A DNA stretch of 64,000 nt from Monocercomonoides exilis PA203 (Eukaryota > Protista > Preaxostyla), in contig LSRY02000004.1 of NCBI GenBank assembly GCA_001643675.2, positions 1,798,001-1,862,000 of the forward strand, read 5' to 3'. The notes under the pieces were generated by a model that saw only the letters and a program-made list of their open reading frames with translations, was not told the DNA's origin and ran no database searches. Position 1 is the first letter of the stretch; every line of letters starts with the position of its first letter. The position numbers and the translations under genes are program-made. Of this stretch, positions 12,601 through 62,759 are shown piece by piece.

Positions 12601-15600
12601 GTCCAGCAGAGATGAAGCAGAAGAAGAAGAAGGAAGAGAAGGAACAAGAGGAGCACATTGAAGAAGATGGTGCATGCTGTCGAAGTCGTTGAAGGCGATG
12701 GGAGCAAGGCACATGTGAGGCGGGATGCGTGCAATTGATGAAGATGATAGGGAATTCAAAGCAGAAGATGCTTCGGTTGAAGCATTCATCGAATAACTGG
12801 AAGCAGAATGAGAAGAAGAGCGAGGCAAGAATTCAGTGTTAACGTGTTGTATTTGCATTTTTGAGTCAACAGAAGGAGTTGGCACGAAATAATCGATGGC
12901 TGAAAATGCGAATGGGTTGTGGCTGACCTGTTTGGTTGTGCACAGCACGCTCAGCACAGCCAGCATCTTCCTCGAATGCTCAGTGGAGAAGTGGCTTTCT
13001 CGAAAGATGTTCTGATTGTCGTCAGTTTTCGCCCTCATTGAAGTCTGCTTCGCTCTTTTGAAAAGAGAAGATGATGAAGAACTTGCTGAAATTGCCATTT
13101 TACTTGAAATTGGGGTTGTTCCAAGAACATCCTTGTCTTCTTGTGGCGAAGGCGGGACAGGCACTTTCCTCTTTGCTGCTTCTTCTGCCATCTTCGACAG
13201 TTGAATGCAGTCTTCCTTCACAGCATTTTCAGTGGCGATGACTAACTCTTTAATCAGCCCTGGAGGAAGCGAAGACTTCAGCGATGGAGGCAAAGAGGAG
13301 AAAAGTGAAATGAACAAGTCACAGACGGAGTTTTGAACAGAAGGGAGAGATTTCAAAAGAGGAAGAAGATAATTCCGGAGAGTTAAAATGAGAGCATCTT
13401 TGGTTGGATTAAGAGGGGAAGAAGGAAGAGAAGAAGAAGAAGTAGCGGTGGTAGTTGAAGGCAGAGGAAGTGATTCAATTGAGTGAATGAGGCTGGCTTT
13501 GATGTTGGAAGACAGTTCAGACACACTCCAAAGCAAGGAAGAAAAAGGAAGGACATCAAAAGCAGCAGAAGAAGAAGCAAAAACAAGACGGGTCAAAAGG
13601 CGAATAAGTTGGATGAGCGAAAGGAAGAGGAGGACAACAAGAGAAGGAGACTGAGAAATAACAGCAGGAATAGCAGAAATGGATAAATGTTGCTGAGAAG
13701 ACTGAGAAGAAGAAGAAGAAGAAGATGTTGATGATGACGATGATGATGATGATGATGATGATTGAGATGCAGAAAAAACAGATTGTTTGAGCTTTGTTGT
13801 CTGTGCCTGTTTGATCGACTTTGCCTGTGTGTCGACAATATTCTGGTAAGAATGAGACAAAGAAGAGAGCGACGCATCCAACCACCTCAGAACATAGGAA
13901 AGGCGAGCGATGGAAGAAAGGATATGCGAATGGAGCTGCTGCGACAGAAGCACTTTTTGTATGATGGCAAAGGGAATGCTCAGGAAACGGTGGGAAAAGC
14001 AGAAAGAGGAAGAGGAGGAGGAAGAAGAAGAGGAAGAAGAAGAATGAAGAGGAATTTGGTGAAATGAGGAAGAAGATGGAGAAGTGATGTCTGCGAGAGG
14101 AATTTGGAAAGAAGGAGGAGAAGAGGATGATGTGGCTGAAAAACAATGAGAAAATATTAATTCCGAATACATTTTGGGAAATGGCAAAGAGAGAACTGAA
14201 GAAGAAGAAGAAGAAGAAGATGATGATGATGATGATGATGATGCTGAAGAAGCCTGTAAGCTGTCTTCATCTTTCTTTTGGCTTTCCTTCTTCAGCCACT
14301 CATTTACGCTGATTTCGTGTTTTTCCTCTCTTTCATTGACTTTTTCAATGCAGTCAGCTATGATGCTATTCAAAGCAGTTGCAGAGATGCTCTTAAAACT
14401 CTGATTAGCAAAAGAAGACGACGAAGACGACGATGCAGTCTGTGAATAAGACACAGAAGTGTCAGTGAAGCTGAGAAGAGCATTAGATGCAGCCAAAAGA
14501 GACCTGTAGGATGGTATCTGGAGGAGAGGGCTGAGCAGATTCGGCTGAGGCTGTGTGAAAGATGGGATGTTTTCATCGAGGCAAAGCGGATCAGACAGAG
14601 AAGAAGGCAAAGTGAGGGTTTTGTCATTCATCAGCTGGAATTGCTTCTTTGTGAGTTCTTCTTCACTCATTTCTTTGTCGTGCTGCATTGAATCAAACAA
14701 GTCGTTTTGTCCTTCTGAAAAGTATAGTGGAAGACTCATATCAGATTCATCACAATCATCCGAATCATCCTCGTTTGTTGCATCTTTCCCCATTTTTCTC
14801 TTGTCTTTCTTCAAATTCTCAAGCAGCACATTATTTTCCTCATCCGTTTTGCACAAGTTGCAGAACTGTGCAATCCCCGCCACTTCATCCTGTGACTCAT
14901 ACAAAAGAGAAAGATAACTGGTTGTCAGCGAAGACGATGTGAAATAAACAGAAGCGCTTTCCAGAGCAGTTTTGATCGAGTCATGCTCCTTCGAAGCTGG
15001 AGACGAAGAGGAAAAATAATCAGAGGAATAATTCTGATTCAGAAGACACAAGTCGCCTGGCTGAATCGGAGGTGGAGGATGCAAAGAAGACAGCTGCATT
15101 GCTTTTTGTCGGCTGGGAGGTTCTTGTAAAGATGGAACACGCAAATTATTTGGTTTATTCTTTTCGTGTAAATTGTGATGCTTCGATAATCCATTTTCTT
15201 CCTCTTCCTCTTCCTCTTCCTCTTCTTCCTTTTGAGCGTCCTTCAATCCCTTTTCTGTCGCCAATTCCACATTCTGCACGAAATGGCGCAGAAACAGCGA
15301 CAAGTCAGGAGGAGACAGAGCCAAACATTTTTCTCCGCCAACTTCAACACATCGCATCAGTGAAATGATTTCCTCTTCATCATCATCTTGCTCTTCTTCT
15401 TCTTCTTCTTTGGGAAGATGAATGAACGGTCTTTTTGACAAACCTAGTAAACTTGCTTTGTTACCAATAGCGTTCTCTTTCCGCTTGCCAAACGCAGAGA
15501 GGATGGCCGAAGAGCCAGCCATCTTCAGCTTTCGGCGCATGTTCGACTCGTTCTGAACAGAAACATTCGTCTCAAAGCCGTCTTCGCTGCCGCGCCACAC

Positions 15601-17433
15601 AGAAAGCGCCGAAAGATTGCGCTTGGAATGTGCAGGAGGCTGATGCTGTGTGTAAAATTCATGTGAAAATGGAGTTTTCAGAGACGAGACAGAAAGTAAT
15701 GCAGAAGAAGCGATGTGCACAAAAGAGAGAGTTGCTGTGTGCGGAACGGGTGCTCCTTGCTCAAAGGGATGAGGAAGGACAACACGAAAAAGTGTGTTGA
15801 AATAAAGTGTTTCTTTTGGATGGCCTCTGCTGCTTTCGTTTGAGTTTGTCTCATCCTTTTCGCTGTTCAAGTCAGCGGAAAGTGTCTCAATAGATCGTGT
15901 TGGTAGAGACAAAGCAGAAACCACAGTCTCAGAAAGCGACAGATGAAGCAAAGGAGATTGGAATCTGTAGCGAACATTTGGAATTGCAAGACGAAGCATG
16001 GTAGTTTTGTCACCTTCGTCCGTAGCTTTTTCTTCCTCTTTGAAATCGACAGAAAAATGTGTCTTTTTCAAGAACTCCTCCAGCCTTATTTTTTGCTCTT
16101 TTCCTCCTTGTGATCCTTTCTCCGCAGAAACCTCAACAAAACTGCTTCGTTTTGAACGTTTGCCTTTCCCGTTTTTTGAGCAGAGACCGCAGAATGTCTC
16201 TGCCAGCGTTCTGTTCTGAATGTCTATATCAGAACAACAAAGATAACGCTTGCTTAACTTGTGCCGCAACCGAACAATGTCTCCATTGCATACAAATGGA
16301 GAGGTTGAACTTGCAAAATGGGAATCATTGGGGTAAGACACTATGCCAGTGGGATGTTTTGAAAATTTTTCATTTCTCTTGCCTGAACAAAGAAATGCTG
16401 ATTCACAGTCACACAAAGTGTAATCTTTAAACGGATCTTTCTGAGTAGCATCGAGATTCTCCTTTGCAACAACTTCAATTTCAAATGTATCCTCCAAGTC
16501 AGCAACATCTGTGAATGTTGCGCTTGGCTGAATAATATTTGTTGATCCACTCACACCAACAGCTGAGCTAAACATGTTGGTATCTGCAAAATCATTATGG
16601 GAATCGACCATAAATGTCAAATATGGTGAATGTTGAGTGTTGTTCATGAATGAATTGTTGATGAATAATTTATGCTGTTTGTTCATTTTGCGAATTGATT
16701 GCGAATTTTTTACAATATTACGAGAAAAGCAAATTGGCAAGTGTGAGGATCCTTCTTGTCTGGAATTTAATCTGAATGTTGAATTATTCAACACATATGG
16801 GGAAATCAAAGAGGCAGATAATGGTATTTTCCCCAAAGAATTTGATGGGGGAGCGACTTCAAGTTTCCATTTTTGAGGAGGATGAGAAACAAACGCTTGA
16901 AAATGTTCCATTGAGCTGTTTGCAATTCCAATTTTATTTGAAAACTTAGAAAAATAACCAAGATTTAATTCAAGTCCTGTTTTTTGATGAAATAATAAAA
17001 TTCCATCACCAATGCATAAGTTATCTGAATTCAAAGCTTTCATTCCCATTGATTTTGAAAATGGCTTTATAGCCCAAATGAGATCTTCAGAGTTCTCATT
17101 GTTATTTACTGTAACGAATGGAAGAAGCTCACCTGAACGTTTTTCGTAAGTTCGTGAATTTGCAGATAAATATAAATTGTCCATATAGCTTTGAATATAC
17201 ACCAAATCTCCATAATGAAATTGCGTATATTCCGTTTCAGCAACATCCTTTTTAACAGGAATTAATTTCCAATAACAATATTCGCGTTTATATTTGTTAA
17301 TATGCATATTTAATAAATTGCTGTCAATAACGCAAATTTTCCCTTTAAAGCAAGTTAGAACATAATTAGCTGCTAATCCATTAACTTTTGTATAAAATTC
17401 AATAAAAGAATTTGATATTATAGCTTGCTGCAT
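673..17433 (-). CDS. Giant IP3-receptor/ryanodine-receptor-like Ca2+ release channel (5586 aa, single exon)
   Basis: N-terminal MIR/beta-trefoil-like segments (GDLVYIQS, GDGILLFHQKTG, GDIVRLRHKLSKRYL); RIH-associated-like motifs (QLCYGHNFKAQEVLR, KGPNEQNQ); VEIVRDGNLQKYFFPIP; C-terminal TM helices; pore region CDDVFRCF...GMMTGG; ILLGIISGIIVDTFDELSDE; CFACG...HRDEDHNPWRY zinc-finger tail. Many poly-Ser and acidic insertions. Confidence 0.9.
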   Translation of the reverse strand: MQQAIISNSFIEFYTKVNGLAANYVLTCFKGKICVIDSNLLNMHINKYKREYCYWKLIPVKKDVAETEYTQFHYGDLVYIQSYMDNLYLSANSRTYEKRSGELLPFVTVNNNENSEDLIWAIKPFSKSMGMKALNSDNLCIGDGILLFHQKTGLELNLGYFSKFSNKIGIANSSMEHFQAFVSHPPQKWKLEVAPPSNSLGKIPLSASLISPYVLNNSTFRLNSRQEGSSHLPICFSRNIVKNSQSIRKMNKQHKLFINNSFMNNTQHSPYLTFMVDSHNDFADTNMFSSAVGVSGSTNIIQPSATFTDVADLEDTFEIEVVAKENLDATQKDPFKDYTLCDCESAFLCSGKRNEKFSKHPTGIVSYPNDSHFASSTSPFVCNGDIVRLRHKLSKRYLCCSDIDIQNRTLAETFCGLCSKNGKGKRSKRSSFVEVSAEKGSQGGKEQKIRLEEFLKKTHFSVDFKEEEKATDEGDKTTMLRLAIPNVRYRFQSPLLHLSLSETVVSALSLPTRSIETLSADLNSEKDETNSNESSRGHPKETLYFNTLFRVVLPHPFEQGAPVPHTATLSFVHIASSALLSVSSLKTPFSHEFYTQHQPPAHSKRNLSALSVWRGSEDGFETNVSVQNESNMRRKLKMAGSSAILSAFGKRKENAIGNKASLLGLSKRPFIHLPKEEEEEEQDDDEEEIISLMRCVEVGGEKCLALSPPDLSLFLRHFVQNVELATEKGLKDAQKEEEEEEEEEEENGLSKHHNLHEKNKPNNLRVPSLQEPPSRQKAMQLSSLHPPPPIQPGDLCLLNQNYSSDYFSSSSPASKEHDSIKTALESASVYFTSSSLTTSYLSLLYESQDEVAGIAQFCNLCKTDEENNVLLENLKKDKRKMGKDATNEDDSDDCDESDMSLPLYFSEGQNDLFDSMQHDKEMSEEELTKKQFQLMNDKTLTLPSSLSDPLCLDENIPSFTQPQPNLLSPLLQIPSYRSLLAASNALLSFTDTSVSYSQTASSSSSSSFANQSFKSISATALNSIIADCIEKVNEREEKHEISVNEWLKKESQKKDEDSLQASSASSSSSSSSSSSSSSSVLSLPFPKMYSELIFSHCFSATSSSSPPSFQIPLADITSPSSSSFHQIPLHSSSSSSSSSSSSSFCFSHRFLSIPFAIIQKVLLSQQLHSHILSSIARLSYVLRWLDASLSSLSHSYQNIVDTQAKSIKQAQTTKLKQSVFSASQSSSSSSSSSSSTSSSSSSSQSSQQHLSISAIPAVISQSPSLVVLLFLSLIQLIRLLTRLVFASSSAAFDVLPFSSLLWSVSELSSNIKASLIHSIESLPLPSTTTATSSSSLPSSPLNPTKDALILTLRNYLLPLLKSLPSVQNSVCDLFISLFSSLPPSLKSSLPPGLIKELVIATENAVKEDCIQLSKMAEEAAKRKVPVPPSPQEDKDVLGTTPISSKMAISASSSSSSLFKRAKQTSMRAKTDDNQNIFRESHFSTEHSRKMLAVLSVLCTTKQVSHNPFAFSAIDYFVPTPSVDSKMQIQHVNTEFLPRSSSHSASSYSMNASTEASSALNSLSSSSIARIPPHMCLAPIAFNDFDSMHHLLQCAPLVPSLPSSSSASSLLDSAGSSSSGRGDVYLHPHPSLSLMTLKKDGSVKLLSPLIAPLSLFAHHLKEEEEEEKKTAEQKKIEEGIKRECAEREREKKNERNSSKSSSMSSKHSIHSSSSDDVLAHPIDIIFSILIESPSLLQHLCPSSSSSNSSSSSSSASSYSSNKQNSFILVLNADLSKLPQSTSSQQNLTSSSSFSSSLSSSGTHPIPSSQMIPFMTLHLSLLSFFITLSHTQRPFILSSLRSLFPLSVLERLVCFESTFDSAVPVSVKTQLIALTRLLYFEDGSFGEEQKADSNKNGGKQKESQRSLRSTSSMFSSSSSALPVPPPVLDAIAPKEQEFFRANRWREMIRKKEEGEGRIMRHHLVYNRNAVSDSPVASSPDLFSTPLSFQKLISNSSSSSSSSNTSPSHFQFAHLSSYCPSTSLPKPAHTAPSSFAITLFNSLVILCDSTTFGPSEDGKSAVSQLVKREKKNKTGNGSSNDEEEVEIIAPSLSVEQLQYISVAVSLIAHLLRTRQCALSILPQKLLRRCLNSLKRFCAEEGRKEAEEEEIKERIVERKKMKMLEREKNVDGNDPAMNANDDDNDDDNDEEDNWGLNTQGKGYSKSNKTFIDERRLWEVDEGGCYFAIEAENEGENKQPSQIQKYKGSSLNSPAIPLSASAVSAILPLPTLRDEQSVQLSHFYSSSLPPLLPLNLHNTISSSSSSSSLPLSNLTRSSFLYKQTLLHTQQFILQLLRVVDESIQSECVDASFDFFVESFNEIGTAALSPAQTPSSTLVASSPSSSFTQTLTSSFTHLIESNTPTSFFCGLLKATNSVFTQDTHPFLYTQFALLLSRENTSFYRLWNALKNAEIYTDENVKPKRSNTIAKEVESETGVGSSSAPTTFSYVNAMSTLLRWTAEAMCAVLNEWAILQRKGNYLNVIYQLSMDYLRHKVASNSLIQSANSKEKHSKSAELLIEMKMKEKRLLDSGRLVVCISDVYCLLVNLLHLLFDQPLPTKGQQSASSSSSSASKNASSKVDPELEFPFIRSTNSLKLRTLNPFEVGSALQNQITASIATSSSFSFASSSSLSSYALETLSSSASRSSSMSVCVNKQHSLSELEAAQLSSYAVHPLSQRLFFSMDGASIISSVLRFCIPAELLPLVYAFDIIQNSKNSLSFQSADVNNASELRTKQQVDKAFSTARKLILYREKEKLNSSNSAGESYSLTMQSTSSSASANSQSSSKWTRDHTNPVQSLLQMCITVLLAASSPPQQSDCSDLIALFPLLLILIFSDEKIKGLSLLIERAINSMKRKEKQQREEADEDEDKEEEDATNENKNAEDSTLDNQSGSTSHGNSSSNNGKMSPTDAKGNTVVEFCCYLLQFAFEIQVEKETQGIDTQNCSVTNAHKSESSEHPILLITNVLSSIAFDGTAVSPSSQAIILSFLKTKEGNKIINAAINAAEVQSITSKKLKPRSLDDGTSRINNGKESNFSLSSFVGSKDSSSTSSLLYSTARTESGSFRNYHSASSFLCSLPFHLAILSLLSSVCAGGFSRQAQQFCRMCFPLSLVADILKDEKRNKVLVKIGEMVGECLNKRKGSAKGDDDAQDNKEGMKKQTKVEQSFPITGKKTKRSISKQNNKSEPSDKDERADSDTNELKNEDDDDMEEEEDEDDDLSVTERIIKRTKVLSAYFSFLTHAYLTPYVSVRTTSVVAKTVHSGSSVSSSPNPFHSYSHSLSSESLSASSSEVSLPTLSTGNSPFGTLRLRHVKKKSFVPIDFVPVISKSSPFPVRVFLPPSPYASVITLEADEIVLLEDFLDSIVPVMSFLTALDIKHSGIEAYFVQMMDRANIKEAESSPLSISHTADNAPQAPVPPPPLCSSQGDSFNIGALVSDALESNRELVFSVHSLCSSLLSSLSLFIETFFNTTLVTFIVEKYSFSQMLHGSELLRRYTKKKFEGESEEKKKSEEDEENSSLLQNGSTSTEDSLLPSSSSSSPLSVISPFSSSTLDLSRTPFQISEALQKNICILLTDSTNTLLGIYSSLQTSLAYTHSPLLWRREAAKHYYSAAIPMMINLPLSKNSASSTSIAGSPSTAHIRQNSSNTPSLAATPSENSNTISNSPSHKRLLSAPFLSTSKQQNSTPVSTPSSFVESDDTPTPKLSPMLFSQGSYPNIINLSIFFGSSSPLTAPISGELYQYCDKLYKQMTELASLLCFNQKQGNAGHFGTLSRSQTLIMNASKKDLKTGNGNSKSVGNIFSPLTLSNLATGSDALVLQRWNLFCTLFHSMFAYKMSFQSICFFSSLVEMTQKNPQAFARVTSLLQQSFYSLLPTHSQSIAVAAEILDAERKDRSEWEATLKGVILDFFFFFIQTAKRKKQKKGKNWIVSTEEYLVRSLLSLIEEEDDSMLQVCKTETSTFPGDYSGSSSASSSSSSSSFLLSSSYSASSSVTFSHSSPFDASSLQMSVFLGSLTDVINKQLFAFRCGMCDNAISSLLSNNELASSFNYSSAAADSLEASTLSEENTLRSLRVLLFLLVGGNETVRNRLIDILCNKKDSNSEPETSSLSSSLSTTNKNEISFGKCIEAIIQNETISVRASPWWNNMEFFAQSSTAKIDSTFPLTQSVSSNMPSTSPTPTPTPSHSPSAKTAILPTSSTPPNLFSSQKEDNCAHTLIQSVFALMGQLCYGHNFKAQEVLRGSGCVNEDGVAFRGEGNILLAVIEYVNAIIPNSFPEAYFSLFDPAVVDNATDKANAPSSNESISLQTTSDDSEFSDSKAVDYGLSLLIESKLPLSFSSLNNNLGMSADEMLHHITLSLHAMAATMKGPNEQNQLFFVSSDAGLKLINSLFSLKLKIDEIGLSLLKHERELRMKFNKSKGLFQRASDYFTLLSKKEGNPLAPTERKYTRSATSDLLTSAGDIVESSKALSLAERRLTSAAVSLVRAVLEGSGGAVRAVKLSRLTRIRHGLIRRVAAYAMILRSDIMDTFETDQEKEIFFREGLNAYILYRQILDRDEEEKAKVEMKLDGDDVGEWGVLEKVAKLPIGFERVGNMKLWDEEEEKWIVTGKKPKKRKAKVALNSKGDKMNTGLNGNQSGNNIIGTLSQEDNDELNDFEELDITDPLLMSNEINSDNTNDEDKEEDSIAEDNLEILSSQLEQEEAVDLSLHIVFEPMFSKCITWVEIVRDGNLQKYFFPIPSLCNELSDDDKEAVMGDLDHSNLPGKLAEFSTRCSDLYEVAQIKSRMKDWKKRHWPKRIEKEKDENEMLKKNNSNQQKYVVSSSSSQNTLKQNSSMTKEPDEITNNAESNNAGQVNSSLARMLDPSSSSEKIAIQKIPKAKMASRMFSYFLTRSKFISFMRILFNIVAIVLNVMVIFIPSDALDGDSISNRTFFIITAILATVLIVTSSFILVSKFMLKFHIRAERYYWEKRREQAAKIWEETGKTLEEFLEERKKRKEEIANIKQMRKKEKKEKQKASSKNNDPKNQTNFFISASTSATKTEKNAQKNISEGSNDEEGTRSKDEENSLSLNSDDVFNLILKESAKSPINISFAFHAKCYAISILTNREIWTLVAYIVSPVLGLAVSPAFFLVPLLDILDQSRIVHMIFHSISHNAAELIFTGLLLVVVCYLFGIIGLRFFRSSLLQYSDDPDAGIVCDDVFRCFLVMVAGMMTGGKWMQERFLFAGWDGTNDHAGSQFADFVYMMLYFMILSVILLGIISGIIVDTFDELSDERDKAVQERTEKCFACGMPSNPFMSRGYEFSKHRDEDHNPWRYFAAYIYVNETIFGKRREEKRKRKTKAKLLKAQKEKFMNEIQQYQFQLNEYIEQQREKGFDVSSLIGSSGDGNEDDDESGIKEKYPYVAELKKSIIATKEKMNECIRQGLKSEVDTVRERINLVGGDELWLIGKYLKGDNTFYPIHRATVLDGEGTHRSSTGYDEDEDDEKSKYSGEHEEEDEMKEKSGDEDREGNKMSINKQKSSGKRTRIQKSPVEGELFENIFMEALTLQRQVLKMNRTLQS

Positions 17434-17919
17434 GGATTAAAAAGGTGAATAATAATTTTCTAATTATTTAATGGTACTAACGATCAATGAAATTCAATTA
17501 AATAAAAAAGGTCTTTTCTGTGATTATTTTTATTGTTAGTGATTTAAAAATGAAAAAATTTGAATAGATATAATTGAACGAAAATTGTTTTTTGAATTCA
17601 CAAAGGAAAATGATAATCAATTAAAAATGTCATTGTAAACACAAAATTGTGATAAAAAAATAAAAAATAAAAAATATATATAAATTTATTAATCACATGT
17701 TGGATTGGTATATTATTATTTTCCAAAGTGATTATGAGCTTAAAGATGAAGTTGTTTGAATAGTTGAGTTTCATCAAAAAATAAAGAATTACAAATATCT
17801 GCTCTTGTCAAAGCAATCCAAATGTTATTTTCGTTCGAAAACGTAGAAAGCCATTTATCCAAAAAATTTTTTAATAAAAAAATAATTTATATATTATACA
17901 CCATTATAGATCTGATTGA

Positions 17920-19722: not shown

Positions 19723-21619
19723 CTAATTATCAAACAAAAAATTGATAGCGCTTTCCATGTTTTTCCCACATGCAATGTATGCCTCTGTAGCTGTAGCTGA
19801 AGCTGAGCCGGTCATTTCCACTATTTGCTCAATTTTTGCTCTGTCTTCGTCTGTCAGGTCTTGTCCAATTGCTGCATCATCAGCCAATGCTGAAGCTCTT
19901 ATTGGAGAAGATGGAAGAGTTGTTTGAACAGAAGGTGCCATTTGTCCACGAAATTGTGGAGGCATATACGGAAGCATATTCTGTCTTTGTGGAGGCTGTG
20001 CTGGTGCCTCTGCATCCTGATGATGCTCTGCTGCGGACTGAGGGGCTGTGCCGCTCACAGGCTGAGCTGTCGGATGCCCAGCTGTCTGGTTGATCATCTC
20101 CACCATCTGGTTCACCCGCTCAAGCGTCCCATCTGCCGTTGTACCAGAATATCCCGTGATGATGCATATAAACTCGCGGGGATATTGCGTGATTTCCTGT
20201 GCAAGTTCTGGGTTGGTCCCAGAAAGAAGCGTGACAATCTGCGGAAGAGAAGTGGGTGCTGTCGTCAGCATCTGCCTGAGCTGCATCAGCTGCGGATGTG
20301 TGCGAAGCTGGTCGAGCATCGGGTGCTGTTCAGCTGCAGACTGAACCTGAGCTGTACGTCTTGTGGCTGCCTCGTTAGCAAGGCTTTGAAGCCGCCTTGT
20401 TTCCTGCTGAAGCCCACGGACCCTGCTGAGCAATTGGCTGACAGATGGATTTTCCTGGCTTTGTCCTTCGGTTGCTTGCGACTGATAGCGCTCTCTCATC
20501 GCATTCAGATCGTCGCTTCTCGCTTCCATTTCTCTATATATGTCATGAAGAGCTGCATCATTTCCTTCTACATCGTCTGCATCCATCGATACAGATGAAC
20601 TCTCAGAAAAATCATCTCCGTCTGAAAGTTCAATGCTCATCGCGGCATCAATGCTCGCCCTCCTTCCTCTTGGAGCAGGGCCATCTGCAGGAACTCCGTC
20701 CACTCCACTCAGCAGTGCCATGTCATCCGGTATCCCGTTCATCAAGTACTCAACAGCTCCATTCACATCACCAAATGCAGCACGCAATGCTCTCCCAGCT
20801 TCATGTGGATCAAACCCCATTGCAATCAGCTCTTCCAGCTGAGCTGAATTTGCATCGCCTCCTTGGGCAGGCGCTGGTTGAGAATCGCCGGCTCCTGTAG
20901 TCGGCTTTGGTTGTTCAGGTTCTGTAGGAGGAGTAGGATTTGTACTTGTTGTGGTTGATGTGCCGAAAAAAGATGCAAGATTCCTTTTAGCAGAAGAAGA
21001 GTTTTGCTGTTGTGATTGTTGCAAAGATGTTTCAGGCTGCGAAGATGGTTGAGAAGTTGGCTGAGAAGTTGGCTGAGAGGCTGGTTGAGAGGCTGGTTGA
21101 GAGGCTGGTTGAGAAGTGGGTTGCGAAGCTGGTTGGGATGAAGGTTGAGAAGATGGTTGAGAAGGCAGTGTGTCATTCGAAGGAGGCTTTGAGGAAGATA
21201 TTGGCTGTGAAGTATTTTGTGTTGCATTGCTCGCTGGTGGTGCTGCAGTCTGTAATTAAGTATATTTAGAATTATTTAGTTCAAAAAATTCAATTACCAC
21301 GATTTTTGAAATTAAAAGGAGCAAACTCGCTTTACATAAAAGACAATGACACTATTGTCAATCTGAAATATGTTATATTTATCAAAAATTTTAGTCAAAA
21401 TCAAAGTTATCATCTTCAGAAAAGGAGATTTCAAACAACATTGCATTCTTTTAGTGTTTTTCCATCTTGCAAAACTTTTCCAGCAAAAACAAGATTTTGA
21501 CTTTGAGCTGCGAATCCATGTTTGATTTCTATTTCATGTTTGAGATCAAAAACACTTGCACTTTCATCAATTTCAATCTGATAAATTTTTGATGACAAAG
21601 TCTTCAATTTGATAAGCAT
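19723..21619 (-). CDS. RAD23: UV excision repair / ubiquitin shuttle protein Rad23 (UBL-UBA-XPC-binding-UBA; exons 21619-21437, 21362-21327, 21249-19723)
   Basis: UBL domain (MLIKLKTL...QNLVFAGKVLQDGKTLKEC); SQP-repeat linker; UBA1 (LIAMGF...ALRAAFGDVNGAVEYLMNGIP); XPC-binding region (QLRTHPQLMQLRQM...NPELAQEI); UBA2 (EAYIACGKNMESAINFLFDN). Two GTTTG..CAG introns preserve the frame. Confidence 0.92.
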
Positions 21620-37107: not shown

Positions 37108-38379
37108 ATGGGTAAAGCACGGACTTCATCAAAACCGAATGATAAATCGAAGAAAAAAGAGGCATCCGTCTTTTCAGGAACAGCTAATCTGACAAATACA
37201 ATTATTGGTGCTGGAATTCTTGGACTTCCATTTGCCTTTGCTAAGTCTGGATTAGTACCGGCTATACTGATATTCCTGGTGATGCTGTGCTTGTCGTATT
37301 TCTCATTCTATTTTTTAATGTATTCTGCAGACGCAACTTGCTTGTACACTCTTGGAAGCGTTTGCAGATTTATAGATTATTAAATCCTTGATATATGAAT
37401 ATTGCTTAATCTTTTCTGTTTTCGAATTATTAATTTTAGATTGGAGGAAGATTATTTGGACCTATTGGCATATTTTTTGTTGGTGCATGTACATTTCTTC
37501 AGTGTTTTGGCTTCCTGTGGGCTTATGTTGTACTTGTAGGTGATTTTTGTCTTTCACTACTGCGTGCAGCTGGAGTACCAGATGGAAGCGTGGTTTTACA
37601 ACGTTGGTTTATTACAGTGCTTCTTGGATTTTTCTTCTTTCAGCCTTTGTCATGGTTTCGTCGAGTTGATTCATTAAAAACTGTTAGCTCGTTGGCGATC
37701 GTTGCTATCATTTATGCAATAATTGTTGTATTTATAAGATTTGTTGCACCAATGGAAGGAATGGATTCTCATGGCCCCGCAGAGGCGGTTCATCCTTCTT
37801 TGACAATTATTCAATGTTTTTCAACTTTGTGCTTTGCATTTGGATGCCAGCAAAACATTCCCATCATTCAAGGAGAACTGGGTCACAAAAGCATGGCATC
37901 CATGAAAAAAGTTGCATTGTCAACGTTAAGCATTGTCGGGATTTTATACCTCTTGTCATCGCTCTTTGGATACATACAATTCACTGATCTATTTTTCAGT
38001 GCAGAATCTGCAGGAAACATCCTTACAATGTATAAAGATACTGATGTTGTTGTGCTAATCGCGAGAATTGGCTTTATAGCTGCTTTGATCTGCTCTTATC
38101 CTGTGATGTTTATTCCGACTCGTGCAGAATTGCTGGGGATAATAAGGTGCATTGTCGATATGGCCACATTGAAGGATAAAGCTGAGCTAAAAAGGAGATA
38201 CAGCGGTGGAAGAGGACCCCCACCGCTGATTCCGAGAGAATGGAAAAATGTGCTTATTTGCGGGAAGATCACTAAGCATCACTTGACAACTGGAATCATT
38301 GGGTCTCTTATCACTCTTTTGATTTGCACTCTTTCCATCTTCTTATACAAGGTTTGAATAATTGAATGTTTCTATCAAG

Positions 38380-43538: not shown

Positions 43539-44502
43539 GGGTCAATTATTAATCGGTGCCCAAAAAATTAATCGGGACCTAAATTTTCTGGCTCTCAAGA
43601 GCAGTTTTAGAAAAAAATAAATAATAGAAAATTATTAATATGTTATTATTTACTATTTCTGAAAATATTTTTTCATATTTTAATTTTTGTGAAAAGATCT
43701 GGTGTTTTTTGTTTTATTTTTAAGATCAAAGACTTGCTCGTATTTTCACCAGTTTTTTGTTTTGAGATTTTTAAGTATTGTTATTGTTATTGAACATAAC
43801 TTCTTTATGTTTTTGGTTATTTTTCATTGTTTAACACTTCGTTTTTTATTATTTTTTCCATTTCACTAAATTTCAACAAATTAAAGAAAACATATAAATA
43901 AATAAGTTTTTACGTTAATTCAAAAGGGAAAATATTTAAATTATCAACAAAAAAGGCATTCAAAAAAATAAATATCTTGAAGTTTTTATAATTGTGATTA
44001 TTATTCAAAACAACTTGTTTTTGTGTATTTTTGTGTTTTAAACTTCAAATCATATTTTTTCATTTCAAAATTTAGATGATACACATACCAATCAGTTTCA
44101 TAACCATTCTTCAATGAACAAAAACATGGTAACTCTAATTTCACAATTTATTTTTTATTTTTTCGAAATTTAGTGAAATGGAAAATATAATAAAAAAACG
44201 AAGTGTTAAACAATGAAAAATAACCAAGATTATAAAGAAGTTATGTGCAATAACAATATCAATACTCAGAACACTCAAAACAAAAAGCTCGTTGAAATAT
44301 GAGCTAGTCTTTGATCTAAAAAATAAAACAAAAAACGCCAGATCTTTTCACAAAAATAAAAAATTTTAAAAAATATTTTCAGGAATAGCTTTTTATAATA
44401 TATTGAAAATTTTCTATTATTTATTTTTTTCGAAAAGTGCTCTGGAGAGCCAGAAAATGTAGGTCCCGATTAATTTTTTGGGCACCGATAAATAATTGAC
44501 CC
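43539..44502. mobile_element. MITE/foldback element with ~345-bp TIRs
   Basis: GGGTCAATTATTAATCGGTGCCCAAAAAATTAATCGGGACCT... (43539 to ~43885) is an inverted, slightly diverged copy of ~44155-44502. TA flanks both ends; ~270-bp non-coding core. Confidence 0.88.
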
Positions 44503-54857: not shown

Positions 54858-55539
54858 AGGAATTTTTATTAAAAAACCACTTCACTTAAAATTTAATACA
54901 AAAATCAGTTAATTAAATAAAAACTTTTTGTTAAAGATAACCTGAATAAACACATTGACAAGGGACAAAACATTTTTTTCTAAATGAAAAGCGAATTGAA
55001 AATAGCTCTCTTATATATCTTTTGGATTTTATCATAATTATTGATCATGAAGTCTTTTTAACCTCTGAAAGTTTTTTGTTTTTTAACGAGTATTTCTCCT
55101 TTATGTGAATTTTTTCATCAGAATATAAGGTTTAAAAAGGTCAAATATATTTCTAACAGACAGATTTTATTCCTGACGCTATGTTCCCTCTTTCCCAAAA
55201 TTTTTATCTTTATGGAATTTTGAAAAAAATATTCAACAATTTTTAATACACGCCTTTTAATGAAGTTTAGAAAAGTGATACAGTTTATGCAAAAAATACT
55301 GGACAATATTGATTTCTCATTAAGAGCAAGAAGAAAAATTCTGACAATTTTCCTCCAAACGTATCGAAATAATACTAACTCGGTTTGTATATGAGATTTT
55401 CTTAAAAGCCTCATTTGTGCTCAGAAAAAAATTATTAATAAAATTTAGAAGAAACTCAAAATCCTATTTCTCCGTAATTTCAGTCATCAATTTTTTTGAG
55501 TACAAATGAAGCTATTTTGAAAGTTTAGGAAAGCAAATG

Positions 55540-55586
<47 letters not shown>

Positions 55587-55859
55587 AAAAGTTCCTTTTG
55601 TTTTATTGCCTAAATAAACAAAAATTTCATATTTCAATCAAAATTTTTTTCCCTATCATCAAACTTCGCTGTCATAGAAACAAAATATTAAAAATGTTTT
55701 TATTTTCAATTTTGCGAAGTTTCGTGAGAAGGAATAGAAATTTGATCGAAATATGCATTTTTTATTCTATTTGAAAGTTAAATTGAAAGAAATTCTGATT
55801 GACATAATTTCATTTTTCCTTTATCCTTTTATGTGCGAATCGGTTTTTTAATATGAAAC

Positions 55860-55986
55860 TTTCATTAAAAAAATGCAAAAGAGCAAAAGAACGCATAGGT
55901 GTATTTAAGGAACATTCCCAATCCATGATTATTTTTTGAACATTATGATTATAAAAATGTTGATTTAATAATATTACATCTGAATG
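55860..55986 (-). pseudogene. Probable 3' continuation of the interrupted Merlin transposase
   Basis: Reads HSDVILLNQHFYNHNVQKIIMDWECS, in frame with the 5' part across the TGAATG duplication. KIIMDW fits the second catalytic Asp motif (TIISD.W). Confidence 0.5.
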
Positions 55987-55991
55987 GACAA

Positions 55992-57013
55992 GAAATATGG
56001 TATATCAGCAATAGATCCATCTAGATTAGGTCAATCAATATTATCGATTTATGAATATCTGGTGGTTGTTATCATCTTGTATAATAAGTTGAATAGGTGA
56101 TGATTATAAGATAGAGATCGATGATTATTGCTGATACTCTTAGAGGTTTCTAACGATTATATATTCAGTGATGTTCTATAAAGATGGAGTCATTGATAGG
56201 TGTTATCGAGATATATCTATAGCTGATATACCATAACTCCTAGGAGGAGAATCAGCTAAAAGATTAACTGGAAGATTTGTTAAAGGTGTTCAAGTTGGTA
56301 AATTAGTGGTGAATTTGTGTGTTATCGTTGATGTTATCGTTTGTGAAATCGCAAATAAAAATAATTGATTTTGTTTTTTGTTTTATAGTAAATGGGTCGG
56401 AAGAAGATATACGCAACTGTCGAAGAAGCTAAAGCGGCTCAACAGAAGCAAATTAAGCAGTTTCAGGAAAAACGGAAGGAAGAAGCAAAGTATTACAATG
56501 AACATGTATCTGAAAAACAGAAGAAGTTGATTAAGATCTTGAGGAGAAAGCTTATCGAAAGTGATGAGCTGTTAGATGAGTTGATGGAAAAAGTTAATGG
56601 TTATTGCCTGCACAGGCTTGATTGGGCAAAATGTGTTAATTGACGAAATATAACAGACTACACACGTTCGTTGTATCTCCAGTAGAATCAAACAGTAGTC
56701 ACGGTGGAGTTGTGGTGGATTGTCAACATCAATATTTTTTCTTGGAAAAAGTGTAAATCGGTAAACCGGATACCGGGTTGTGGCAATGTCTGAGACTCAG
56801 CGGAAGGGAAATATTGGGTTAAATCTCCGTGCTGGAAGCGTAAACCGGTTAACAGGTAAACCGGATCTTTATATTTCATCTGAAAAGAGCTGCCAGCATG
56901 CCATTTCTGCCAACATGAACATTTTACCCCTAATTTGCTATGATTTTGAAAGTTTTTATTTAATTTCGACTGTTTCATCATTTTGCAACACTTCCACATG
57001 GAATTGATGGTGG
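55992..57013 (+). repeat. Left terminal inverted repeat (~1022 bp)
   Basis: Reverse complement of 59708-60729. The ORF track shows identical mirrored proteins; visible mismatches are confined to the outer ~40 bp. Confidence 0.95.
56392..56643 (+). CDS. Small basic helical protein in the left TIR (83 aa), possibly DNA-binding
   Basis: ATG after an AT-rich leader; GRKKIYATVEEAKAAQ motif followed by a charged helix; identical copy in the right TIR. Confidence 0.65.
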   Translation: MGRKKIYATVEEAKAAQQKQIKQFQEKRKEEAKYYNEHVSEKQKKLIKILRRKLIESDELLDELMEKVNGYCLHRLDWAKCVN

Positions 57014-57375
57014 CATACGTTCGTTGTATCGTCAGTGGTACACATCAGTTTTATCGTCAGTTGTTAAGAACAGTTATCACCTGCACAGGATAAGCTGGTT
57101 AGGTGACAAGTGTGATGCTGTGGGGTGGAAATATTGAGTTAAATCTCCGAGCTTTTCACCTGCAAAGTGTGCACAGGATGCACTGGATAAATTACATTCT
57201 GCGAAATATGTGGGCAAACGGGAAAAGTGAGCAAAGTGGGCAAAATACATTTAATGTGAAAATTTCCTGTTATCGTTTATTTTCGACATTCTCCCAGACG
57301 TCATCTTCCTCGTAAATGCACGTTACAAAAATAAATCTGTTTCAAAAAAAAAATTGTTTTTTTGATTTTTATTAA

Positions 57376-59641
57376 ATGACAAACTCCCAACCAGACTCTG
57401 ATAACGAAATCCAACGACTAATTGATTCAATGTCAACAGAACAGCAAACGCTGGGAGAACGAATGAAAGATCACGTTGTTGACTTGTTCGACTGCAAGAA
57501 ATATTCCGACAAGAAGCAAGGCCAACGACACACTGGAACAGCTGTCGATATCAGCAAATGTGAGGATCTCTGTGTGGTTGATGTTGATATCAACAAATCC
57601 CTTCAAGCTGAACAAACGAAAACCGTCAGGAATTCCATTCTCGAGAAACTCCCCCGAAATGTCGGACTTGTACAAACAGCTCATGGTGGTCTTCACATTT
57701 ATTGTGAGCTGCTTGGTTATCCCCTCAAATGTTCATCACAAACCAAAGTGTTCACGAGTCCAGAGTTTGATATCGACATTTTTGCAGGTATTGGAGATGG
57801 AAAACAGAGGCTTGTTGTTCAAGCTGACTCTTCATCCAGAGAGATGAAAGATGGCAAGAGAATCATCACCAAATACATTTCACTCAACAATTGCAGAGAT
57901 CAGAGATCTTTCATCACTTCAGAGTGTTCTTGCTATCTTCGGTATTGACATCAAAACAGAGAATACAACAACGACAATGGCAGCTGAACCACACAATCTT
58001 CTCACACAAGATGGAATCGTAAATATGTCGTCAACTGTCGCACTTGCTCTTGTTGGTGGACTCGAAAATGTTGAAATACATAACGACACAGATTTTTTGT
58101 CACTTGATTCTGAGTTTACTCTTTTACTGTCATTTGCAGCTCTCAACTCACTCGTCAACATTAATTGTTTCGATAACCAATCGATAGATTTTCTTTACAA
58201 TCAAATCAAAGAGACAGCTGCTCTTACAGCAAATGTGATCACTCACTTTGAAGAAAAACGATACATGCACAGAGATAACAAGTCACATCCATTTGTTCTA
58301 CAAATGATTGTCAAGAGGTGGAATCCAACATATTACAACGATGTGATCATTCCACTCCTCAGAAAAGAGAATGAGCAAAAGGAAGAACCTCCACAAGAGA
58401 TTACTGTTCATGAAATAGATCTCAACTCATCGTTCTCGTTCTCTGAAATCAGGGATAAAGCTTTTCGAAAATAATACTCCTCAGCATCTGAAGTCGCTGA
58501 AGATCTCACAAAAGTTCTGAGGTTTGTTGAAGCAATGGACGAGCTGTTCAAAACAATAATACTCTGGCATGATGACAAAAAGACTCTCACAGTTGAGACA
58601 GCTTTCGAACAATACTCACATGTTCTATCGATTGATGATGTGAAGTTCTTCTCAGATAACAATCGAATATTCTCTCAGTTCCATGGGTTCAAATATCAAA
58701 TTGCAAACGAACAAAATGACGAAATCATCAAAACATTCCTCGATTTCACACGAGAAGTTATTGCCAACAACAACGAAAAACTCTATCAATACATCCTCTG
58801 TTGGATTGTATCAATTGTTCATAATTCTGGTCAAAAAGCGGAAACATCACTTGTTCTCAAAGGCTTGCAAGGTATTGGAAAGAATGTCTGGACAAATGTT
58901 TTTGCTGAACTGTTGGCAGGATATTCATGTCCAAATGTCACAGAGATTGCAGAACTGACAGTACAGTTCAACTCCATCGTTGAAGGGAAATGCTGATTGC
59001 ACTTAACGAATTGAAGAATTTTGGAGATGATCGAACAGCTAACTTTGACTCATTGAAGAGTAAAATCACGTAATTCAACAATCAGAATCAACGAAAAGAA
59101 TCAGCCAAGAAGAACAGTTGAGAACGAAGCTAATTTCATGTTTGTGACAAATCACTCATACACTATCAAGGTTGAGATTGGTGACAGGAGATATGTTGTT
59201 TGTGATTGTGACTCAAAATATAAGATCAATCTTTCATTCTTCAAGGATTTCACAAGCTCTTTCGATAATGAATTCTATGAACAACTTCACTTTTATATCT
59301 TCAGCAAAGATCTCTCCAATTTCAACACAAGGGCAATACCAACAACAGAGGTGAAAGAAGATATCATTGCAGCATCACTCTCTATCATCGATGTGTTCTG
59401 TCAGGAGCATTGCAATAAACTCAAAGAAGTGTGGGGACGTTCTGAAGCACTATGTTTCAGACCAGTTGAATACAAGAACGATCGCTCATTCCAATTGGAA
59501 ATCAAAGACAGATGCGAGAGAAAACAAATAAGTGGTGGAGGAAATCAAGTGTGGTGTTATGAACTCAAGCCAGAGAATGAACAACTCCTCAAACGGCGAG
59601 AAGATGAAGATAACATTGACTGTTCAGTGGAAATTAACTAA
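57376..59641 (+). pseudogene. AEP primase-polymerase fused to a D5-like SF3 helicase, disrupted
   Basis: Prim-pol motifs LCVVDVD, VQTAHGGLHIY and DIDIF. Helicase region FSQFHGF...YQYILCWI...KAETSLVLKGLQGIGKN (Walker A), LIALNE (Walker B), ANFMFVTN (motif C) and DRRYVV (Arg finger). Frameshifts near 57895, 58990 and 59071; in-frame TAA at 58472. Confidence 0.88.
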
Positions 59642-59707
59642 ATATATTCGTTTTTTTGGAAATCATTAATACAAAAACTATACAGCTTGTGTGCCACTTG
59701 TTATATA

Positions 59708-60729
59708 CCACCATCAATTCCATGTGGAAGTGTTGCAAAATGATGAAACAGTCGAAATTAAATAAAAACTTTCAAAATCATAGCAAATTAGGGGTAAAAT
59801 GTTCATGTTGGCAGAAATGGCATGCTGGCAGCTCTTTTCAGATGAAATATAAAGATCCGGTTTACCTGTTAACCGGTTTACGCTTCCAGCACGGAGATTT
59901 AACCCAATATTTCCCTTCCGCTGAGTCTCAGACATTGCCACAACCCGGTATCCGGTTTACCGATTTACACTTTTTCCAAGAAAAAATATTGATGTTGACA
60001 ATCCACCACAACTCCACCGTGACTACTGTTTGATTCTACTGGAGATACAACGAACGTGTGTAGTCTGTTATATTTCGTCAATTAACACATTTTGCCCAAT
60101 CAAGCCTGTGCAGGCAATAACCATTAACTTTTTCCATCAACTCATCTAACAGCTCATCACTTTCGATAAGCTTTCTCCTCAAGATCTTAATCAACTTCTT
60201 CTGTTTTTCAGATACATGTTCATTGTAATACTTTGCTTCTTCCTTCCGTTTTTCCTGAAACTGCTTAATTTGCTTCTGTTGAGCCGCTTTAGCTTCTTCG
60301 ACAGTTGCGTATATCTTCTTCCGACCCATTTACTATAAAACAAAAAACAAAATCAATTATTTTTATTTGCGATTTCACAAACGATAACATCAACGATAAC
60401 ACACAAATTCACCACTAATTTACCAACTTGAACACCTTTAACAAATCTTCCAGTTAATCTTTTAGCTGATTCTCCTCCTAGGAGTTATGGTATATCAGCT
60501 ATAGATATATCTCGATAACACCTATCAATGACTCCATCTTTATAGAACATCACTGAATATATAATCGTTAGAAACCTCTAAGAGTATCAGCAATAATCAT
60601 CGATCTCTATCTTATAATCATCACCTATTCAACTTATTATACAAGATGATAACAACCACCAGATATTCATAAATCGATAATATTGATTGATCTAATCGAG
60701 ATGGATCTATAGTTGAAATTCCATATTTC
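59708..60729 (-). repeat. Right terminal inverted repeat (~1022 bp)
   Basis: Mirror of 55992-57013 (paired coordinates sum to 116721). Confidence 0.95.
60078..60329 (-). CDS. Small basic helical protein in the right TIR (83 aa, identical copy)
   Basis: Same translation as 56392-56643. Confidence 0.65.
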   Translation of the reverse strand: MGRKKIYATVEEAKAAQQKQIKQFQEKRKEEAKYYNEHVSEKQKKLIKILRRKLIESDELLDELMEKVNGYCLHRLDWAKCVN

Positions 60730-60732
60730 CAG

Positions 60733-61320
60733 TGAATGTTCATTTTTGTTTGGAAGAAATTCAAGTTTGAGTTTCTGTTTCTGTATTTATGTTTTTCTTT
60801 CAATTGCTCCCCAAAGCTATTGTTGATCTTTTTCTCTTCCCACGTTATTTTTGTTTTTTGAAATAAATGTTTCGTCCATTTCTATTGTTTTGTTGATGCC
60901 GATTTTGTCCAAACAATTCAGTTCAAATTAGACACAAATTCTTCTCATCAACTGATTGAATTTTTTATTGTTTAATTTGATAAATTTGTTTCTTTTGTTG
61001 TTTCATTTATCTCGTGCCGATACCAGTAATGGTACAAAAAGCACATTGCAGAAAATTGTGATATTTTGTGTTCATAAAAAATTATTTAATTATTCCAAAA
61101 ATATTCCTTTTTGAATCTCATACATCGAAATGAGTAATTGCTTTTAACATTTCTCCATTTTTTGAGTAACATGTTGACCACGTTCTTATGTAATTTTTTA
61201 TTTTTGTTCAAAATTCCATATTCTTCAAACAGTGAAAGGGAAAACTCGTCGCTCCCTGATCAATTAATTAAAAACTGTGTGAATGTTGGAAATTTGCACT
61301 GTTCTGATTCCTCTTGCATG
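60733..61320 (-). pseudogene. Merlin (IS1595/ISXO2-like DDE) transposase remnant, 5' part
   Basis: A minus-strand frame not covered by the ORF track reads KIGINKTIEMDETFISKNKNNVGREKDQQ*LWGAIERKT*...EFLPNKNEHS, matching the Merlin pattern KIGG..VEIDES...K.N.GR....WVFG.IER. Upstream FEEYGIL and FFMNTK resemble the Merlin N-terminus. Confidence 0.75.
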
Positions 61321-62759
61321 GATTTGAAGAGTATTAAAAATTTTTCTAAGTTCTAATAAGATTATTAAATAATGTTTTTGATCAAAAATGAAAAAAATAA
61401 TTATGGGATTTATGATCAATTAAAAAATTGAGTGAAATTTCATGATCGAATTTCGGCATTTCCCTTTTTGAATCGCTTCGTCAAATTGTGTGGATTAACG
61501 CTATGATATTACAATTATGAAAAAATTCAAACTGAAGTGGTACAATTTACACCTATGCTAAATATTGATCTGAACAAATCATCAAAAGTTCGAGAATCTG
61601 CGGTTTCGAATAAGATGGGTGAAGGTTGTTGCTCTAATTCAGCATGTGAAAAAATATTTGAAGAAGCTGTTGGGATCTTGGAGCTACTGCGTTGGGAACT
61701 TGTTGGCACACTGATCTGCATTGCAGTACCAGTTGAAGGTGAGAGTTCAGCTTTCAATGGGGTCTGCGAGGAGCAAAACATTTTTGATCACGAAAAGTGA
61801 CATGACACATTTAGTGGCATCTCTCAACAAGAAGAGAAGAAATTGAATAGAAGTTTTATTGACAATTAAAATGTTATGCATTTTAATTGATATTAAAATT
61901 TTTGAAAAAAAATCGTGTTCCTCTAAAATCTTCATTTAAGCAGAAATCAAAATATTTTAACCAATAAATTACATTCGCAATAAAAATAACAATAAAAATA
62001 TTGGAACAATACAAGAATTCAATTTACGTAGTTAAATGTGCGAATGGTTAGCAAAGATAAAAATAAATATTAATAAAACACGCCCAAAAGAAAAGACAAC
62101 ATAATATGTGAGTGCAAATAATTTTTTTTATAACATCAACAACGCTAAGGGAAAAGGTGATAGGCAGAATTATTCTCCATTGTATTTGCCTTTAAAAAAA
62201 TTACAATCCAAAATTTATTGAAAATTAATATGCAAAAAGGAAAAAAAAAAAAAAGAAAAAGAAAAAGAAAATACACACAAATAATAATAATATTATTAAT
62301 AAATAAATAAATAAATAAATAAATAATAATAATATTTATGAACAATGCAGATAAACAAATGTATTCGAAGATATGCCTACAAATAAACAAAGGGTGACAG
62401 TACTCAAGATAAGGGAAGGAAATGAAAAAGAATTAATGAAATTACAATGCGAATAACAGAAAATAAAATTTGTGAATGATTTTCTTCAGATATATGAAAG
62501 CAATAAGTTGAAAAAGAGAATGAGCAAATCAAAGCATTCTCGTTTCGGCTTTTCTAAATCAATTTGATGCGAGATGAATAAAGCACTAATGAAGAAAGAT
62601 CGAAGAGACAGAACTATTTCAATTCTTTTTGTGTATGCTGAAAGAATACCAAACTTTTCATGTTTCATTACACAAACAAAGCAATATGAGACATCTGGCT
62701 ACGTGTTTGCAATTTCGTGTCATCCTCTCAAAAGATTTCAATCGACAAATAAATCGCTT

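Follow-up and report, generated by a model that had tools for sequence, protein, structure and literature searches.

A 64,000-nt stretch of contig LSRY02000004.1 of the gut protist Monocercomonoides exilis PA203 (hereafter the window) contains a 4.7-kb element in which inverted arms of about 1 kb surround a single central gene for a primase-helicase. That gene appears to be a standard part of metamonad Polintons, so a reduced Polinton is the reading that suits the element best. We lean towards the interpretation that it is a dead copy from a non-autonomous family, one that arose by reduction from metamonad Polintons of the TvMav3 type and would depend on a helper's integrase for insertion.

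The central gene and its relatives

The central gene is predicted to encode a pRN1/NrS-1-type AEP primase fused to an SF3 helicase; an earlier note on this DNA had proposed the AEP-SF3 combination. Pfam returned only sub-threshold DUF5906/VapE matches for the five main open reading frame (ORF) pieces. A model of the N-terminal 174 residues, built from 58 sequences with a predicted local distance difference test score of 91, matched pRN1 ORF904 with Z 8.7 (root-mean-square deviation 3.3, 129 residues aligned) and NrS-1 with Z 7.4. The top 18 structural rows were all of primase-polymerase type, and Foldseek by itself gave E 5e-3 for the AEP match. Each of the catalytic residues D69, D71, H107 and D134 is conserved in 90% or more of the 58 sequences. 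The helicase half matched NrS-1, to which it is closest among solved structures, at E 8e-27, and the SF3 Walker A, B and C motifs are present together with an arginine finger. Descent from the D5 protein of nucleocytoplasmic large DNA viruses (NCLDV) was considered and rejected; the poxvirus E5/D5 and African swine fever virus AEP domains rank below pRN1 and NrS-1.

The best protein match is the intact 758-aa M. exilis protein MONOS_12125, with 85% identity over 699 aligned residues. Measured against it, the gene has three frameshifts (near 57897, 58987 and 59070), a stop at 58472-58474 and, near 58535, a deletion of 25 codons. Short-read contigs were compared from four runs of one sample, perhaps the source of the assembly itself, with 32 pieces and 15 joints listed. 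The lesion near 59070 is borne out by a difference-free contig (58995-59195), and the stretch deleted at 58535 is retained in other copies, as a loose contig end lies there in 3 of 4 runs. A ciliate-type genetic code was also considered and is unneeded; the long host ORFs read with table 1.

The protein family is large, with 2480 representatives at E < 1e-30, a count that includes helicase-only matches. Genomic surroundings were examined at 16 related loci: 264 loci were scored, ten of them exceeded 300 bits, the 648-nt L163 was dropped and seven contigs from four genome bins were added. Six of the 16 have Polinton-type neighbours. L208 carries pPolB (PF03175, 112 bits), L277 an A32 ATPase above the cut-off and an end resembling a major capsid protein (MCP), and L138 an rve-like integrase (E 2e-4, under the Pfam cut-off) with a 546-aa ORF that by eye resembles the Histomonas MCP of PMC10120064, Table S3. 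MCP-like ORFs neighbour the gene in L097 and L279, and L205 has a pPolB-type ORF, an ATPase and DUF4108. Among the remaining loci, L135 and L140 have neighbours of other kinds, seven offer little or no flank and one is a fragment. L205 shares both the primase domain and the helicase subclade of the M. exilis protein (support 0.90 in a midpoint-rooted FastTree tree of 59 helicase regions, without a topology test).

According to the supplement of PMC12289875, a primase is found in 91.8% and DUF4108 in 58.8% of 1705 TvMav3 copies. Shared DUF4108 neighbours and context suggest that the element's protein belongs to the TvMav3 primase family. The earlier note had pointed to AEP-SF3 fusions in NCLDVs, Polinton-like viruses and plasmids and had taken the element for a minimal linear replicon; the context of the gene's relatives, the helicase tree and the TvMav3 frequency indicate a standard component of metamonad Polintons rather than a free-standing gene of NCLDV or plasmid type. 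In a protein atlas the full protein lay nearest a 165-member cluster in which Parabasalia are commonest, which serves as a lead only.

Several other observations were made among the relatives. The same SF3 helicase occurs without an N-terminal primase (L138, L208), with a different N-terminal domain (L277, L270) or with a pRN1-type AEP (L205, L214, L223), and this variety is, to all appearances, primase swapping inside one Polinton group. The pPolB-type protein of L205 (L205:2986-5496, 837 aa) is divergent and adjoins the AEP-SF3 gene, and a word-index database search gave three relatives of it; L205 is perhaps a Polinton with two priming systems whose polymerase is eroding. At L140 (51-2276) a helicase-only gene and DUF4108 lie between a 73-nt inverted pair of 75% identity. 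Metamonad-type Polinton genes were also found in bacterial and archaeal genome bins (L205, L206, L208, L214, L223 and further G002 and G003 contigs, with eight matches in G002 alone), probably as contamination from gut protists.

Wider searches differed in yield. From IMG/VR 80 loci were kept, all helicase-only matches at 22-35%, and one motif scan there gave nothing. A metagenome scan with automatic patterns yielded 589 stretches, none of them a relative, and a second, from 25 of 64 parts, gave at least 118 loci. Genome scans returned two chance loci, none for P0096, and 28 loci in another. The short contigs on which metagenomic homologues lie were considered as a sign of compact elements and rejected; homologues that cluster closest to the Polinton-borne gene of L205 likewise lie mostly on short contigs.

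Arms, termini and insertion site

The earlier note had described inverted repeats of about 1 kb around one primase-helicase gene, each repeat encoding the same 83-aa basic protein, and both observations were borne out. The paired arms (55992-57017 and 59704-60729) are 1026 nt each and 99.3% identical, with the five-lesion gene between them. Six of the seven mismatches fall within the outer 40 nt (56001-56030) and one at the inner edge (57014). Feature coordinates are given in Table 1.

The hexamer TGAATG does flank the element on both sides, as the earlier note stated. We consider it likely, not certain, that the pair is a 6-bp target-site duplication at the single locus examined. The reservation is made because hexamer and arm are separated by unpaired bases, 5 nt on the left side and 3 nt on the right, and because an alternative reading fits about equally well: the ends would then be TG (55985) and CA (60731), and the target repeat would have 5 nt, one of them mismatched. 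Among 20,000 random position pairs a 6-nt match occurred in 0.07% when exact, 0.8% with 3-nt slack and 1.5% with 5-nt slack. Polintons produce target-site duplications of 5-6 bp and have ends starting with AG. No open frame reads across the reconstructed empty site, Rfam gave no match, and the 64-kb window holds no second copy.

Among the 32 short-read pieces listed, the left outer junction is spanned by difference-free contigs from three of the four runs, and the inner right one by such a contig from a single run; no listed piece spans the right outer or inner left junction.

The outer part of each arm contains a weak fold-back (self-BLAST E 1e-4), and the first 260 nt have DNA folding z-scores of -2.3 on the left and -1.5 on the right (40 shuffles). 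Flip-flop hairpin ends were considered and rejected, as shuffled sequences fold at least as well as the first 120 nt. Motifs in the left spacer are 66-88% like those of the inner arm and appear as diverged copies of them. Iteron-like words are weakly enriched: the best 7-mer was reached in 4 of 500 shuffles and the best 8-mer in 24 of 500, several word lengths having been tried.

The only protein match of the identical 83-aa ORFs is M. exilis MONOS_17995 (90% identical), and in the protein atlas the small protein scored below 0.9 and gave no lead. L208 and L279 each have a small basic ORF downstream of and convergent with the helicase, placed like the right-arm ORF, and the 83-aa ORF scores against these above 4998 and 4999 of 5000 shuffles, respectively.

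Table 1. Features of the element (positions in the window)
Feature	Position	Strand	Remarks
Target-site duplication, left copy (likely, 6-bp)	55981..55986	+	TGAATG in sequence; chance 0.07-1.5%
Left arm	55987..57017	+	Pairs from 55992; outermost 5 nt unpaired; difference-free contigs span outer junction
Weak fold-back, outer arm	55996..56235		55996-56016 pairs with 56215-56235; mirror copy on right
83-aa basic ORF, left copy	56392..56643	+	Weak likeness to small ORFs tail-to-tail with helicase in two Polinton contigs
Left spacer	57018..57375		Inner-arm motif copies, then AT-rich stretch, then ATG
Broken AEP primase-polymerase + SF3 helicase gene	57376..59641	+	Primase part ~57376-57897; five lesions; catalytic motifs readable
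Right arm	59704..60732	-	Pairs up to 60729; outermost 3 nt unpaired; difference-free contig 59465-59798 spans inner junction
83-aa basic ORF, right copy	60078..60329	-	Convergent with helicase gene
Target-site duplication, right copy (likely, 6-bp)	60733..60738	+	TGAATG; right-flank paralogue aligns only from 60731 outward

Absence of other Polinton genes

The element was searched by tblastn with 113 ORFs from the 16 related loci and three pPolB-type proteins. Matches were confined to the helicase gene or its antisense frames, the sole other match being a chance one of 14 residues outside the element. Within the element there was thus no match to pPolB (the three pPolB-type proteins and the L208 pPolB), for which there is also no room, to the rve integrase (the integrase-like ORF of L138), or to capsid and packaging ATPase (the MCP-like and A32 ORFs of related loci). 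Of the further stop-to-stop frames listed for the arms, the longest has 131 aa, and no ORF of the element is long enough for a double jelly-roll capsid module or a tyrosine recombinase. With respect to the autonomous Polinton class, therefore, the long inverted repeats are present and pPolB, rve integrase, capsid and packaging ATPase are absent.

The lack of integrase, pPolB and capsid genes agrees with the earlier note. Its further proposal of dependence on a helper holds in that the element has no integrase of its own, and a helper is plausible: Tables S1 and S4 of PMC10120064 give six Polinton MCP hits in M. exilis, in a cluster common to Streblomastix and parabasalids.

Other copies in the M. 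exilis genome

The earlier note had suspected an element family in a gut protist, and the many diverged copies on contigs, together with the intact paralogue MONOS_12125, agree with this. The MONOS_12125 cluster has six members, all from M. exilis and on contigs that differ in length: two near-identical full-length proteins, perhaps from one locus, and four truncated ones. Short-read contigs 85-99% alike cover the whole element (all 30 bins, 4 of 4 runs). Summed over the gene, contig depth exceeds that of single-locus contigs free of differences by a factor in the tens, a rough measure that gives no copy number. To judge by these sequences, this is a multi-copy family of diverged members.

The compact layout is suggested to recur in other copies because diverged contigs chain arm, spacer, gene start and gene 3' end. 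One (59546-59834, 37 differences) joins the 3' end of the gene to arm-type sequence, another (57208-57607, 55 differences) joins spacer to gene start, and arm-to-spacer joints in other copies lie at 56602-57112 and 57112/60046. Paralogue P0035 continues into sequence that matches the window up to 59716, inside the right arm.

Unclassified repeats make up 35% of the M. exilis assembly according to PMC8767320, and the account of M. exilis repeats given there mentions neither Polintons nor Mavericks.

Comparison with known systems

The element resembles metamonad Polintons, especially class 3 of the Trichomonas vaginalis TvMav elements, in its long inverted repeats, its primase-helicase gene, the small basic ORF by the helicase and the likely 5-6-bp duplication. 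It differs from them in size (4.7 kb against 10-28 kb) and in lacking pPolB, integrase, ATPase and capsid. TvMav3 arms measure 100-130 bp, whereas those of the element have 1026 nt; arms of 500-900 bp are given for TvMav1/2 in PMC12289875.

Transpovirons, which carry an SF1 helicase and are proposed in PMC5499653 to be Polinton-like viruses (PLVs) reduced by gene loss, offer another parallel. Like those of the Mimiviridae, the element is small, bounded by inverted repeats, without capsid and helicase-coding. However, the SF1 helicase of transpovirons is Tlr1-like and joined to a dead pPolB, and they are carried in giant-virus particles, whereas the element has an AEP-SF3 gene and lies in a nuclear genome. 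PMC11296320 describes PLV primase-helicase end modules, "mobile helicases", and an integrated Ca_PLV1 without a detected integrase. The element is similar to such an end module in having a primase-helicase beside inverted repeats, the repeats being the origin proposed for that module's enzyme, and to Ca_PLV1 in integrating without an integrase of its own; it lacks the capsid genes and the tyrosine recombinase or GIY-YIG neighbours of the PLV modules and mobile helicases. With pRN1 ORF904 and phage NrS-1 it has in common the AEP fold and SF3 helicase described above, but those enzymes are prokaryotic (plasmid and phage) and only ~11-20% identical to the predicted protein.

Arms bearing genes and Polintons without polB are reported from insects (bioRxiv 10.1101/2025.02.07.637071). 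PMC11161782, PMC2836005 and bioRxiv 10.1101/2024.03.23.586382 served as background only. No description of the element was found in the literature searched, a scope that excluded bioRxiv supplements, Repbase and most subscription papers. By the features examined, the element stands outside autonomous Polintons, PLVs and transpovirons, yet it probably would work as a transpoviron-style satellite.

Origin of the element

Under the interpretation that we favour, an ancestral Polinton would have lost all but its ends, the primase-helicase gene and the small neighbouring gene. The primase-helicase of intact members would act at the arms of a linear copy after excision, unwinding the DNA there and priming its synthesis, and the displaced strand could anneal its own arms into a panhandle, so that one arm would be copied from the other. 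Insertion, with a duplication of 5-6 bp, would then be carried out by an rve integrase supplied in trans, perhaps together with pPolB and capsid.

The arms bear on the history of this copy. Residues private to it, at positions where the other copies agree, number 43 of 479 (9.0%), compared to 2.6-4.1% in five paralogues, a comparison set biased to intact ORFs. The inner ~987 nt of the arms, beside the decayed gene, contain one mismatch, and arms drifting as long as the gene should differ at dozens of bases. As the gene is decayed but the inner arms are near-identical, one arm was likely re-copied from the other late, in helper-driven panhandle replication or by chromosomal conversion. The ragged outer 40 nt fit chromosomal conversion at least as well as panhandle copying, and collapse during polishing is a possible source of the arm identity. 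The arms also have in common letters that most other copies lack (56099/60622 and 56105/60616).

Several results weigh against a helper-mobilized family of reduced Polintons. An old insertion that underwent conversion in place would explain the six outer mismatches as well as a recent insertion would. Elsewhere in M. exilis the compact layout was seen only on separate short contigs, none spanning an element; no full-length Polinton with the same arms appeared in the data analysed, and the L205 pPolB-type protein found no match in M. exilis in a weak, word-index search that returned three proteins. The ends are ragged and without the AG start of Polintons. Only one of the six Polinton-context loci, L205, has the same primase domain, and its polymerase was negative in a direct Pfam scan, the pPolB call coming from the stored domain of a 98%-identical protein and from E 2e-9 to 2e-11 against L208. 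None of the 16 related loci, seven of them with little or no flank, showed long inverted arms around the gene. The link between the small ORFs is weak as well (hidden Markov model E 0.04 over 28,952 ORFs, in basic low-complexity sequence).

One could instead suppose that the locus received a full Polinton whose middle was then deleted, or lost when one end was copied over the other, and which has been immobile since, the other gene copies lying in larger elements. The five lesions and private residues agree with such a one-off remnant, as do the tips with their six mismatches and their unpaired bases, the diverged inner-arm motifs of the left spacer, which would be expected after a template switch, and the adjacency of helicase and small ORF in real Polintons. 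We nevertheless think it unlikely: diverged contigs show that in other copies both gene ends are linked to arm-type sequence, P0035 continues into right-arm sequence, and gene depth suggests tens of copies against six MCP hits. Quite unlikely, in our judgement, is a mini-replicon independent of any helper, whose intact members would be episomal, use their own primase-polymerase-helicase and enter chromosomes through host repair or a non-Polinton transposase. That the AEP fold is closest to the replicase of plasmid pRN1 and to NrS-1, that an intact ORF exists, that the ends differ from the Polinton type and allow a TG...CA reading, and that the window contains a pogo-like transposase remnant all speak for it. 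On the other hand, there is no evidence of free forms, which contigs cannot reveal; the likely duplication of 5-6 bp would indicate a DDE enzyme, the nearest relatives with context are Polinton genes, and the enrichment of iteron-like words is weak.

Finally, the near-identity of the arms might be an artefact of assembly or polishing, or a foldback-type DNA transposon might have captured a Polinton fragment; we regard either as very improbable. The mismatches do cluster where unique flank anchors reads, only two of four junctions were confirmed among the pieces listed, and both flanks are themselves repeats. Both arms nevertheless hold letters that most other copies lack, and at these letters one run has about twice the single-locus depth (6.9 versus 3.6, weak evidence from one contig), and the arm gene adjoins the helicase in Polintons.

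A more far-reaching version of the reduced-Polinton interpretation would make the family a nuclear counterpart of transpovirons: a one-replicase Polinton satellite that retains its own primase-helicase, multiplies as a linear panhandle molecule, relies on borrowed integrase and capsid and has come to outnumber its helper in the genome of Monocercomonoides, while copying extends even to dead members. We put this forward tentatively, as a possibility that we rather doubt.

Surroundings in the window

The element is closely flanked by repeats. A high-depth repeat lies just to its left (55217-55867) and contains an 81-nt imperfect inverted pair (55589-55669/55714-55794), and the right flank (60733-61500) is likewise repeated. 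Further mobile-element traces are a broken pogo-like DDE_1 transposase remnant at 24524-25635 on the plus strand (PF03184, E 1.5e-6, above cut-off) and, at 43539-44502, a ~960-bp element resembling a miniature inverted-repeat transposable element; its inverted arms measure 354 bp (88%), TA lies on either side, and this TA duplication assigns it to the Tc1/mariner/pogo type. Ordinary host genes include a Rad23-like gene with UBA and XPC-binding domains (19726-21255, minus strand) and an amino-acid transporter (37440-38354, plus strand). The minus strand also has a stop-free frame of 5587 codons at 676-17436, and two adjoining open frames of 1078 and 1020 codons at 30455-36925 with no Pfam match at E 0.001.

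Implications

If the element is a one-off remnant, it is ordinary. If its compact layout is that of a family, ends, a primase-helicase and one small protein would be enough for replication, and Polintons would have given rise to capsid-less mini-replicons twice, independently, here by way of AEP-SF3 where transpovirons have SF1. Such a family would offer a natural minimal substrate for the role of the metamonad Polinton primase-helicase beside pPolB, and would put a name to part of the 35% of the M. exilis assembly given as unclassified repeats in PMC8767320.

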